This document shows positions 51,407 through 54,664 of a DNA stretch of 64,000 nt, one piece after another (within the stretch, counting starts at the first letter, position 1; every line of letters begins with the position of its first letter). The notes beneath the pieces were generated by a model. That model made no database searches and was not told the origin of the DNA. It worked only from the letters and a program-made list of their open reading frames with translations. The DNA lies in the NCBI GenBank assembly GCA_964016885.1, contig OZ024746.1, positions 24,428,001 through 24,492,000 of the forward strand, in the 5' to 3' direction. A program made the position numbers and the translations under genes. The DNA comes from Eledone cirrhosa (lineage: Eukaryota).

Positions 51407-51471
51407 TATTTTATTATATATATTTCAGGGGCGACCAAGCCTTTCTTGGTGCGCGTTCATCAGATAAAATA
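51407..51471 (-). ncRNA. Type I hammerhead ribozyme, family A variant 2
   Basis: Minus strand TATTTTAT-CTGATGA-(ACCAAG/CTTGGT stem II)-GAAA-TATATA-TA-ATAAAATA. Confidence 0.75.
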
Positions 51472-51583
51472 CAAAATTTGTTTTTAAAATAACGACATAC
51501 CCATGGAAATCAACCTTAATGGTCAGAAATTCGCTGGATAGTTGATTTACATGGGTATGTCGTTATTTATAAAACAAATTTTG

Positions 51584-51648
51584 TATTTTATCTGATGAAA
51601 GCGCACAAAGATTGGCTTGGTCGCTCTTGAAATAAATATAATAAAATA
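51584..51648 (+). ncRNA. Type I hammerhead ribozyme, family A variant 2 (mirror copy)
   Basis: TATTTTAT-CTGATGA-(AGCG../..CGCT stem II)-GAAA-TAAATA-TA-ATAAAATA; cut after 51640. Confidence 0.72.
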
Positions 51649-52658
51649 AATATGGTTTTATAAATATAATTTCCATTTAATAATATCTTGGAATTTATAC
51701 TCCAGTAAACTGTTGAGTGCTCTATATGAGTTATAAGTATTTATGTTTGTCGGAATTCCAACAAATTAAATATAACTTCTACATATATATATATATATAT
51801 ATATATATATATATTTCGAAGGAAATCACCAGGAAAAGCTTTTCCTGATGATTTCCTTCGAATCAAACAGTTCTAGTCCTGTAGAAGTCATTTCTATATT
51901 CAATTTTGTTGTATACACTCTACTAATGTATTGGGTACCTTACTTACTGTGCTTACCCCCGGGACTCACATATATTTATATATATATGTATGTAATATTA
52001 GGCATTGATAAAATAAGTACCAGTCAAGTACACTACACACGGGGGTGTATATCTGTTTTATAAGCCCTTATTTCCATTATTTCAATAGTGTTTTACTTTA
52101 GGTAATTTAAATTGATTTACAGAATCAGTAGGGCTCTAGATAAAAGGATTGCAGAATTAATAGAGCTTAAGGTAAAATGACTTACATGAGTGATAGTGCT
52201 CTACACCTAAAGATTGCTGACTCGGGAAATACCTAACTAAAATAATTACATCATCAGTAGAGCTCTAGGTAAAAAGATTGTAGAATCAGTTGGGGGTCTA
52301 GGTAAAAAATATAATAGCAAAACCAGGAGAATTCTAGTGAAAATTATTGCTGAATAAGTAGAACTCCAGATAAAATGATTTACAGTACTAGTAAGGCTCT
52401 GGGTAAAATTGTTACACGACCTGAAGAGCTCTAGGCAATATATAATTACAGAATCAGTAAAGCCCCAGATAAATGATAGATGAGAATGAAATACGAAAAA
52501 CAAAACAACTTACACTTTTGCCTTATATTTCATGATATTTCGAGAGTAGAATCCTTTTCATACCATTTTGGTTTTCACTCTTGTATTTCTAAATTGCATT
52601 GCACCGGCATTTCCAAAACAGCCATACCCACATATTTCACTGTGATTCATATAAAATA

Positions 52659-53644
52659 TAATATTTAGTGAGTAAGTAGCGATTGTGTCGCAAGAGAGTT
52701 TGTCACTATAAAATAATTGTGCAAATAATTTGCACGCTCTACATATTTTCTTTCCATCGCAAGTCAGGATATATATTTATATATATATATATATATATAT
52801 ATATATATATATATATATATATATATAATACTTGAATATAAAAGAGAGATGAACACAGATATAGACATATATGCGTTCAAATCGTAAGGGACCAGATTCG
52901 CTAAGGCGAAAAAGATACTAACTATGGACAATAGGGTTTGCCAGACTCAATTTAAGAATAAATCAAGTATAATAATCTTTTTCCTTAAGCTATTTAATTG
53001 TAAGAGACTATTTTGAGTTTCTAACTCAAAATAGTCTCTTACAATTAAATAGCAATAAGAATTGGTAATTGTGAAGAGAATTACCAATTCTTATTGCTCA
53101 TCAGTGGGTGTAAATTAGTAAACTCTTCACTTCTAAGTATATCAGAAAACTGAATAATGTGCGTATATAAAATAACGCACATGGCATCAGAAGCGTGTCT
53201 CACAAACTCACACCACTAAAAATAGTAGCCAATTTTAGTTAGCTCAACAAATTAACGGAGCCGAATATATCAAAGGTATATATTGAGTTAGAAACTCAAA
53301 ATAGTCTCTTACAATTAAATAGCTTAAGGAAAAAGATTATTATACTTGATTTATTCTTAAATTGAGTCTGGCAAACCCTATTGTCCATAGTTAGTATCTT
53401 TTTCACCTTAGCGAATCTAGTCCCTTACGATTTGAACGCATATATGTCTATATCTGTGTTTATCTCTCTTTTATATTCAAGTATTATATATATATATATA
53501 TATATATATATATATATATATATATATATATATATATATATCCTGATGGAAAGAAAATATGTAGAGCGTGCAAATTATTTGCACAATTATTTTATAGTGA
53601 CAAACTCTTTTGCGACACAATCGCTACTTACTCACTAAATATTA
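52659..53644. repeat. ~1-kb inverted repeat (arms ~370 bp, spacer ~250 bp)
   Basis: 52659-53029 is the reverse complement of 53283-53644 with few mismatches; each arm contains a (TA)n tract. Confidence 0.9.
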
Positions 53645-53874
53645 GATTGCGAAACAACTTCACCGAACGCTGTCGGGTGTCTGGTAGTTATATATATATA
53701 TAAACAAAAATAATAGGTTGAGAGATCGAAATTGGCAAAGTTATGCCAACCAAAAAATTTTGAAAATAATTGTTTTAAATTTCTTCTGAATGCATATATA
53801 TATATATACACATATATATATATATATATATATATATATATATAAGATCAAAAGATGGTTAAAAGAGTTCCATG

Positions 53875-53945
53875 TATTCTATTATTCGTATTTCAAAAAG
53901 AAATATCATCATGCAATAACATTTGCGTTTTCGTCAGATAAAATA
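53875..53945 (-). ncRNA. Type I hammerhead ribozyme, family A (inverted arm copy)
   Basis: Minus strand TATTTTAT-CTGACGA-stem II-GAAA-TACGAA-TA-ATAGAATA; core intact, stem III loop mutated. Confidence 0.75.
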
Positions 53946-54043
53946 AGGAGACATGATGTGAATAGTGCAGTTTTAAATCAACATATGTTGATTTAAAACT
54001 GCACTATTCACAAGTGTGTTTTAACCTTCATATCATGTCTCCC

Positions 54044-54114
54044 TATTTTATCTGACGAAAACGCAAATGTTATTGCATGATGATATTTGTTTTCGAAATG
54101 CGCATAATAAAATA
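54044..54114 (+). ncRNA. Type I hammerhead ribozyme, family A
   Basis: TATTTTAT-CTGACGA-stem II-CGAAA-TGCGCA-TA-ATAAAATA; cut after 54106. Confidence 0.85.
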
Positions 54115-54597
54115 CATGGAACTCTTTTAACCATCTTTTGATCTTATATATTATTTATACTCCAGTCCTACAAACTGTAGAGTGCTTCTTATCCGATATC
54201 TTCATTGCTTTATTGTACTACAATACAACTCACCTCCTACATATATATATATATATATATATATATATATATATATATATATATATATATATATATATAT
54301 ATATATATATATATATATATATATATATATATATATATATCCCGTTAAGGGTGAAAGCAGCGATTCTTTGCTTAAACTTTAATCTGTTATTTTAATAAAT
54401 AAATATATATATATATATATATATATATATATATATATATATATATATATATATATATTTAAAGGTTAAACAAGGTTCAATGAATAAATCAATGAATGAG
54501 TTTTACAATAGATTGGAAGCACTCAACAGATTGGTTTTCCGGAGTTATTAATATTAATTCAAAATATTAACAAAATAGATATTCTTGTGATCAAGTA

Positions 54598-54664
54598 TAT
54601 TTTATTATACATATTTCAGAGGTACTGAATTAACTTCAACAGTACGTCCTCATCAGATAAAATA
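54598..54664 (-). ncRNA. Type I hammerhead ribozyme, family A variant 3
   Basis: Minus strand TATTTTAT-CTGATGA-(GGAC GTACTG/CAGTAC CTCT stem II)-GAAA-TATGTA-TA-ATAAAATA. Confidence 0.8.

Follow-up and report, generated by a model that had tools for sequence, protein, structure and literature searches.

What are the hammerhead-like motifs that recur within a few kilobases of the genome of the octopod Eledone cirrhosa, and why do they share a core while their stems differ? The DNA in question, called the window below, is a stretch of 64,000 nucleotides (nt) of contig OZ024746.1 (assembly GCA_964016885.1, positions 24,428,001 to 24,492,000, forward strand), from a genome of 3.0 Gb that is rich in microsatellites. 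An earlier note on positions 51407-54664 of this window (the interval) had described three ribozyme variants that keep their core and stem I and swap unrelated stem II helices. The analysis presented here probably leads elsewhere: the motifs are read as hammerhead folds in the pseudo-long terminal repeats (pLTRs) of three families of Penelope-like retrotransposons, and a bulged hairpin that occurs twice likely sets two start sites of reverse transcription.

Hammerhead motifs and their parent elements

The shared frame of stem I and core is indeed present in the interval, in five copies and not three (two of family A2, two of A1 and one of A3), each laid out as a type I hammerhead: stem I, CTGAYGA, stem II, GAAA, six bases, TA and stem I again. 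A strict pattern matches five times in the interval, six times in the whole 64-kb window and not once in 200 block-shuffled windows. Across the genome, the 15-letter 5' part of the motif has 51,825 matches (control, 259) and the 20-letter 3' part 50,528 (control, 45), counts that stand 200- to 1000-fold above controls. The core is intact in 82 of the first 100 genome matches of the 5' part; the other 18 are mostly mutated or cut copies.

Loci around such copies (numbered with the prefix L) carry fragments of reverse transcriptase (RT) and nuclease on the same strand as the hammerhead. The parent consists of a pLTR (hammerhead, hairpin 1 and tail), a second hairpin (hairpin 2), an open reading frame (ORF) for RT and a GIY-YIG nuclease, a 3' untranslated region (UTR), and another pLTR. 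Complete A1 units, with pLTR, ORF, a 3' UTR of about 1 kb, pLTR and (TA)n, occur at L145 and L149, and open frames of 808-809 codons survive in L145, L146, and L147; intact ORFs of 798-799 amino acids accompany A1 pLTRs at L145-L147 and L149. Units of A3 (L121 and L122) are full-length but frame-broken, while the A2 parent is partial, with hammerheads 1.3-1.5 kb downstream of nuclease remnants (L155-L168) and a tandem junction at L222. A further family, B, is represented by a partial tandem with hammerhead pLTRs at L270. From hammerhead to hammerhead, units measure 3,555 and 3,709 nt in A1 and 4,540 and 4,765 nt in A3, and the proteins of A3, A2, and family B share about 40-55% identity with that of A1.

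Sequence searches of Pfam and PDB were blank for the ORF, and its identity came from folds. For the A1 protein model (predicted local distance difference test, 82.9), the top Foldseek match of the predicted fold is telomerase RT (3du5, E 9e-9), and the five best rows are all telomerase. The modelled C-terminal domain resembles the GIY-YIG domain of I-TevI (Z 9.1, root-mean-square deviation 2.4, 89 aligned), followed by T4 EndoII (Z 7.5) and UvrC (Z 6.1); Foldseek gives weak matches of this domain to the same nuclease families, and Pfam GIY-YIG matches 2 of 27 relatives. YRDD is invariant in 39 sequences, DKT stands at A1 residue 123 and is also present in A3, and a CxCX5C linker, CxxC, and CxH around conserved E and N (A1 residues 657, 757, and 785) are invariant in 27 sequences. 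The RWK position is RWI in A1, RWR in A3, and RWK or RWE in relatives. The sole named protein relative is from the octopod Argonauta hians. These protein motifs, together with (TA)n targeting, suggest membership of the Hydra clade, and we are nearly certain, judging from sequence comparison, that the window motifs are the pLTRs of 5'-truncated Penelope-like retrotransposons of three related families, A1, A2, and A3, with Hydra-clade protein motifs. A Naiad or Neptune parent was rejected; a Neptune-like nuclease fragment near L052 and L085 is a mere neighbour.

Two observations on the parents stand apart. Residues 579-654 of the L145 ORF form an asparagine-rich linker, predicted to be disordered, between the RT thumb and the nuclease; a similar linker has been noted in rotifer Penelope elements. 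At L117/L123 and L280, the short end of one family is joined via TA to the leader and ORF of another, which probably reflects insertion into TA at the end of an older element, or a chimeric unit.

A duplicated hairpin and two classes of insertion end

A downstream ACTCC..GAGTG motif, reported earlier as shared by the variants, follows three of the five interval copies (at 51699, 54159, and 54545, the last on the minus strand) and is absent after the other two. Its lower stem has 4 base pairs (RCTC with GAGY); above it, two bases bulge out on the 3' side, followed by a short upper stem and a loop that varies. The upper stems vary pairwise across subfamilies, and G-U pairs are common. A second hairpin is present at all six tandem junctions found for A1, A2, and A3, where it lies in the ORF leader, 90-97 nt after the first; for the parent elements as a whole the spacing is given as 90-99 nt.

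The arms of insertions end in two sharp classes, either a few bases 5' of hairpin 1 (short ends) or 0-10 nt before hairpin 2 (long ends), with offsets accurate to about 6 nt and alignments extending a few bases into the TA target. A set of 31 A1 matches at offset -192 is a low-complexity artefact and was left out of the end counts. The tail, 84-99 nt in length, is present on one end only. Insertion is into (TA)n, with TATA or ATAT within 10 nt outside 206 of 236 ends. After overlapping loci were merged, and counting only pairs with both ends short or long, one end of each class was found in 36 of 37 two-armed insertions picked regardless of ends, in all 13 pairs picked by the long arm, and in 23 of 26 pairs from a fresh A1 sample, as well as in 68 of 68 pairs at loci picked by the whole element, which is a biased set. 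Contigs of uncertain kind from public runs of two organisms have TA-rich loose ends at the long end, and in one organism also at the short end; such contigs carry no expression, strand, or RNA-end information.

The hairpin may not be confined to octopods. When the consensus sequences of PMC8557442 File S7 were inspected by eye, one coral and one sea cucumber element had it downstream of the hammerhead, another sea cucumber element had two copies in its leader, and a copepod element had an imperfect version (three of six new consensus sequences, and partly a fourth), although the main text of that paper does not mention it; it was not clear by eye in the other coral element or in Hydra-1_Obim. 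It also ends a further family in the present genome (L273, L276, L283, L288, and L290), which has a shorter tail and apparently a GUA-type hammerhead. Elsewhere in the window, a clean bulged hairpin is present at 3376 and similar ones at 26022 (+), 47791 (-), and 48439 (-).

A prediction and a fourth family

The hairpin was also put to a test set beforehand, using a hairpin pattern with a loop length that excludes the known second hairpins of A1, A2, and A3. The pattern occurs at 94 places in the genome (control, 0), and 25 of the 30 places examined precede a related ORF, most of them in family B. This fourth family (L270-L299 and L360-L389) has at least 5,491 copies by matches of a 27-letter marker, and long open frames survive in it. 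Its stem I and stem II are different, but the C-C mismatch, the palindrome, and AUA are retained. Of 30 family B arms, 14 end before hairpin 1, 15 before hairpin 2, and one reads through; all nine pairs have one short and one long end.

Inner ends and the putative RNA start

At their inner ends, the two arms of an insertion are truncated independently, and the joints have overlaps or gaps of a few bases. Of 26 A1 pairs, 15 have a tailed arm that reaches less far in the 5' direction than its partner, four are near mirrors (starts within 5 nt), and four have a tailed arm that is longer. In the first 15, therefore, neither arm contains the other, and each holds sequence absent from its partner. 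Among arms that bear an ORF (n = 20), 15 have the short end, four the long end, and one an end that was not seen.

Many arms stop at a recurrent 5' boundary. Measured from hairpin 1, the start falls between -181 and -166 in 32 of 100 A1 arms, between -233 and -218 in 18 of 30 arms of family B, and at -175 or -174 in 10 of 45 A3 arms, about 16 of these 45 being censored at the look-back edge. The boundary point is the A of TCATATG (A1 and B) or of TCACTAC (A3, with a TATA box about 33 nt upstream), and A2 starts scatter near CCACTAT. In all three window elements, one arm stops at the boundary motif of its family. We take these motifs to be initiator-like from their consensus. A pair of TATA and TCACT has been noted in a rotifer pLTR (PMC3846280), and transcription starts inside pLTRs (PMC8557442). 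It would follow that RNA starts at the boundary motif; the alternative is a polymerase pause at the same point.

The hammerhead fold

The motifs have type I topology, with CUGANGA, GAAA, and UH around three helices and an open-ended stem I. The catalytic core is invariant in 16 aligned copies and in family B. The claim that both core and stem I are kept is correct for the core, while family B also changes stem I, which in most subfamilies is extended with different paired sequences. In subfamily A7 (L221:163-305, minus strand) it extends to a near-perfect helix of more than 40 pairs.

The three stem II pairs quoted in the earlier note were located, in A1 at 54064-54089 (+), in A2 at 51434-51450 (-), and in A3 at 54622-54645 (-). 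They are not unrelated: the helices are readily alignable, positions 4 and 7 are always C and A, respectively, and A2-A3 intermediates exist. All subfamilies have 3 base pairs, an invariant C-Y mismatch (C opposite C or U), and a distal helix of variable length. What looked like swapping is one homologous helix that diverged among retrotransposon families, and a modular exchange was rejected because each type of this helix goes with its own flanks and its own ORF. Pairing is nearly complete, with 94 of 95 cells paired in 19 representatives compared with 79 when halves are permuted; six lineages have 30 of 30 cells paired (1 of 720 permutations) and, in 16 aligned copies, six of eight pairs changed on both sides and no shuffle of 500 matched the score, although the lineages are related and these figures cannot be read as probabilities. 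Because compensatory changes occur across the aligned copies and family B, stem II structure appears to have been selected while its sequence diverged. The earlier idea that structure and not sequence was selected is supported to this extent, but the selection was on parent elements and not on the copies in the window.

The T-N4-A segment of the earlier description is a palindromic helix III, as in hammerheads that act as dimers. The six bases after GAAA complete an 8-base palindrome, with which intramolecular folding is impossible. Helix III is self-complementary in 74 of 82 copies (mean of column shuffles 56.6, maximum 65), in A-U, G-C, and G-U forms, and a palindromic helix III is a published sign of dimer-acting hammerheads (PMC4209133, PMC7229834). 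In cofolding, the lowest-energy dimer contains the double-hammerhead helix III for A1 and family B. The AUA triplet, also proposed earlier, is present in all five interval copies and in every one of the 82 copies with an intact core from the first 100 genome matches. The sequences point to a natural lineage of hammerheads that combine AUA with a fixed mismatch in stem II, and for which cleavage is predicted.

Proposed mechanism

In the mechanism that we propose, RNA would start in the upstream pLTR, at the initiator-like motif that precedes its hammerhead by 60-110 nt, and would contain in order the hammerhead, hairpin 1, tail, hairpin 2, ORF, 3' UTR, and again hammerhead and hairpin 1. The protein, likely a dimer, would bind both hairpins, cut both strands of (TA)n, and prime one complementary DNA (cDNA) 5' of each hairpin. 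Both cDNAs would extend toward the RNA 5' end, stop there or sooner, and then join head to head, and the tail would be the stretch between the two priming starts. Two priming events on a single uncut RNA, one at each hairpin, would account for both the tail and the inverted structure. If both leader hairpins were used and synthesis ran off where the RNA begins, small palindromes like those in the window would result, whereas use of leader hairpin 2 together with the downstream hairpin 1 would join a short arm with the tail to a long body without one, which is the form most often seen among ORF-bearing insertions. Because A1 arms run through the predicted cut site (96 of 100), the template would mostly be uncut or rejoined RNA. 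Cleavage after AUA would occur only as a double hammerhead, in which upstream and downstream pLTR copies pair via the palindromic helix III; this would release or circularise unit-length RNA. Long-ended bodies would come via a further tandem unit or a circle, where the double hammerhead could serve. For comparison, in a lizard element two internal RT starts bound the tail, both strands are cut, a dimer is predicted, and the template is uncut RNA (PMC11167929). The general form of this proposal, that a duplicated and phylum-spanning RNA hairpin in Hydra-clade elements docks the two halves of an RT-nuclease dimer, so that each insertion involves two priming events on the same RNA, one for either cut DNA strand, is in our judgement evenly balanced between true and false.

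Several results weigh against these readings. Four pairs break the rule of one end of each class (1 of the 37 and 3 of the 26), four of the 19 ORF-bearing arms with a visible end have the long end and need a longer tandem or a circle, and the hairpin stems would pair as DNA too, making action at the DNA level possible. For the hammerhead, Rfam searches gave no match at the gathering score or up to E 10 and returned only hairpin-like microRNA models below threshold; the long stem II may be outside the Rfam models. Single-copy folds are no better than shuffles (z 0.0 to -1.7), the number of double-change pairs in the 16 aligned copies is not above shuffles (133 of 500), and the relatedness of the lineages counts in the same direction. 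The lowest-energy dimers of A2, A3, and A4 are other than the double hammerhead. Pair 10.1-11.1 is A-U in 11, G-U in seven, and U-U in one of 19 representatives, and G-U in family B, rather than the usual G-C. The 5' ends do not cluster at the cut site (3 of 100 A1 arms within 3 nt, about 1.4 expected), so that the genome is without trace of cutting.

Alternative explanations

The same elements might be made by a single priming, if the inverted arm arose by self-priming or fold-back, possibly from antisense RNA, and a nuclease trimmed at DNA hairpins and left a one-sided tail. Self-priming on an antisense template has been proposed (PMC3846280), as has nuclease resolution as the source of the tail (PMC8557442), and the four near-mirror A1 pairs include joints that are perfect mirrors on CATATG; the hairpin stems are also able to pair as DNA. 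We consider this unlikely, since a tailed arm that is 5'-shorter in 15 of 26 pairs indicates that neither arm was copied from the other; moreover, ORF bodies lie on either arm (15 short and 4 long of 19), the hairpin stems are rich in G-U pairs, and the tail ends of the lizard element are RT start sites (PMC11167929). A different objection concerns the ribozyme itself, whose fold might persist because it binds protein or has a regulatory role, or might simply be carried along, cutting seldom or never while transposition proceeds independently. The arms that traverse the cut site fit such a role, as do the weak 10.1-11.1 pair combined with the slowest natural triplet (PMC1636495), hammerhead mutants that had no effect on insertion in vitro (PMC11167929), and Naiad elements that thrive without a hammerhead (PMC8557442). 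Yet the core positions are invariant in the 16 aligned copies and in family B despite a differing stem I, helix III self-complementarity is kept through A-U, G-C, and G-U forms, and the lizard ribozyme cut once protein was added (PMC11167929). A fold that seldom or never cuts is given a low probability; it is compatible with the hairpin model in any case.

Two further explanations dispense with the parent elements. A free-standing ribozyme family, exchanging unrelated stem II modules and working at these loci like retrozymes, would account for a distal stem II that differs in sequence and length and for the very high copy number, and retrozymes are thought to derive from such pLTRs (bioRxiv 10.64898/2026.07.22.740005). 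Each stem II type goes with its own flanks and ORF, however, the proximal stem is alignable with compensatory changes, and the copies are inverted pairs or single arms without head-to-tail arrays. A retrozyme array was rejected on account of these inverted pairs and solo arms and of parents with an ORF, and a free-standing family is very improbable. The long inverted, TA-flanked arms also recall miniature inverted-repeat transposable elements of a TA-targeting DNA transposon, in which the hammerhead look would be incidental in AT-rich DNA. But the arms are unequal, with two fixed end offsets, and are the 3' ends of RT-encoding elements, and motif counts exceed controls by the factor given above; the finding of RT-encoding parents led to rejection of this explanation, to which we attach virtually no probability.

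The copies in the window

Read as ends of Penelope-like elements, the copies in and around the interval have the following features.

51285-51364, 51783-51814, 53794-53844, 54241-54340, unstranded: (TA)n runs at the other ends.
51365..51782, unstranded: A2 insertion, a head-to-head pair of 5'-truncated pLTRs between (TA)n runs; left arm with short end, right arm with long end.
51407..51471, minus strand: A2 left-arm hammerhead motif; predicted cut after 51415, stem II pair 2 mismatched.
51534..51542, minus strand: A2 left-arm 5' boundary, the putative RNA start; initiator-like family motif CCA+1CTAT.
51584..51648, plus strand: A2 right-arm hammerhead motif; predicted cut after 51640, helix III palindrome broken, one stem II mismatch.
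51699..51721, plus strand: A2 bulged hairpin 1, the start of the tail, which runs to 51782.
53845..54240, unstranded: A1 insertion, a head-to-head pair between (TA)n runs; left arm with short end, right arm with long end.
53875..53945, minus strand: A1 left-arm hammerhead motif, decayed; helix III palindrome broken, predicted cut after 53883.
53982..53987, unstranded: CATATG, the A1 palindrome centre and recurrent family 5' boundary, -176 from hairpin 1; initiator-like.
54044..54114, plus strand: A1 right-arm hammerhead motif; palindromic helix III intact, first stem II pair mismatched, predicted cut after 54106.
54159..54186, plus strand: A1 bulged hairpin 1; tail to 54240.
54395..54458, unstranded: (TA)n target at the A3 long end.
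54459..54720, minus strand: A3 single arm with long end; its 5' start is the recurrent family boundary (-175).
54518..54545, minus strand: A3 bulged hairpin 1.
54598..54664, minus strand: A3 hammerhead motif, the best preserved of the five; predicted cut after 54606.
33140..33505, unstranded: additional A1 insertion outside the interval.
62808..63115, unstranded: additional A1 insertion outside the interval.

The arms of the A2 insertion are 159 nt long and 91% alike. Those of A1 have 95.8% identity to the parent unit at L149, and left and right differ in stem I, stem II, and helix III. The A3 arm has 97.3% identity to its parent at L121, and no partner arm was seen anywhere in the 64-kb window. 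Of the five interval hammerheads, three have a broken palindrome or a mismatched stem base and a fourth has a mismatched closing pair. As RNA, the inverted A1 and A2 pairs, which contain four of the five motifs, each fold into one long hairpin (about -205 to -213 kcal/mol) in which the motif is buried. The window copies are probably dead by-products; most of them are decayed or trapped in fold-back RNA.

Several neighbouring features were also observed. An 80-nt direct repeat (54724-54803 and 55045-55124) adjoins the A3 arm upstream, at the position expected for a partner arm. A 657-bp element at 52828-53484, between TA runs, has 263-nt inverted arms and inner palindromes, with no hammerhead core found in it, and is surrounded by a second inverted pair (52655-52758 and 53545-53648). 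A hammerhead of another family, with a GUA triplet and a longer helix III, lies at 3085-3260 (+), with a hairpin of the same kind at 3196 and a TA run at 3257. Other repeats are a degenerate array with a 32-34 nt repeat (52109-52472) and a 2.4-kb AAC-rich minisatellite of period 32-35 (42597-44959). On the minus strand, an open frame at about 12460-12965 is presumably like an Sm D3 exon, and about 46800-47714 we take to resemble a fragment of a mariner-like transposase.

Relation to known systems and significance

Much of this is already known, namely pLTR hammerheads, the Hydra clade, the tail, inversion, TA targeting, and AUA. The Hydra clade, which includes Hydra-1_Obim of Octopus bimaculoides, is described in PMC8557442 with a single ORF of RT and C-terminal GIY-YIG, the motifs DKT, CxCX5C, CxxC, and CxH, a hammerhead near the 3' end, (TA)n targets, partial tandems, an inverted 5'-truncated copy, and a one-ended tail. 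The octopod elements differ in a longer stem II with an invariant C-Y mismatch, in a tail of 84-99 nt compared with 30-40, and in units of 3.6-4.8 kb compared with less than 3 kb, a general length that the source gives as a tendency. They also differ in their AUA, whereas all 25 hammerheads in File S2 of that paper cut after GUH. The earlier description of the triplet as unusual is therefore apt among the published Hydra hammerheads compared; in active natural hammerheads AUA is rare but known, and it precedes the cut in eggplant latent viroid (+) and two other plant RNAs, which are active, though slower than GUC (PMC1636495). AUA was the slowest of four triplets in the viroid hammerhead, which differs from those described here in its viroid-type context and stable helix III (PMC1636495).

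Type I hammerheads of animal Penelope-like elements (PMC4209133) are similar in their long helix II and short palindromic helix III pointing to dimers, in opposite-strand pairs 100-700 bp apart, and in many solo copies from truncated elements. They have G10.1-C11.1 and an extra base between 9 and 10.1, while those described here have A-U or G-U, no extra base, an 8-nt palindrome, and AUA. Non-LTR retrozymes (PMC7229834) likewise number tens of thousands of type I hammerheads per animal genome, some dimer-dependent, but are head-to-tail repeats of 150-450 nt without an ORF and not inverted truncated ends of autonomous elements. The closest functional parallel to the proposed priming, Poseidon PAc of Anolis carolinensis (PMC11167929), shares adjacent internal RT starts that bound the tail, AT-rich targets, cutting and extension of both strands, a predicted dimer, an uncut RNA template, and a protein-assisted hammerhead. 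It belongs to another clade, its starts lie within one AC-rich stem loop inside the ORF, and the main text of its report describes neither a duplicated hairpin 3' of each start nor a rule of both starts per insertion. The open literature searched, with older Penelope work outside its scope, contained no duplicated end hairpin, no rule of one end of each class, and no hammerheads in octopus repeats. The hammerhead finding by itself is ordinary; the duplicated-hairpin geometry seems new.

How these relatives of telomerase form the tail and the inverted ends is an open question in the recent literature. With insertion ends in the tens of thousands, ORFs that are still intact, and a candidate signal of compact size, the genome of E. 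cirrhosa makes the question testable in a published in vitro assay; the end rule is also useful to annotators of a very abundant repeat. If the proposal is true, a rule of two primings would account at once for the tail, for the head-to-head inversion, and for the great number of small palindromes whose arms stop where transcription begins, and the two hairpins together would be a portable signal that directs an RNA copy into (TA)n.

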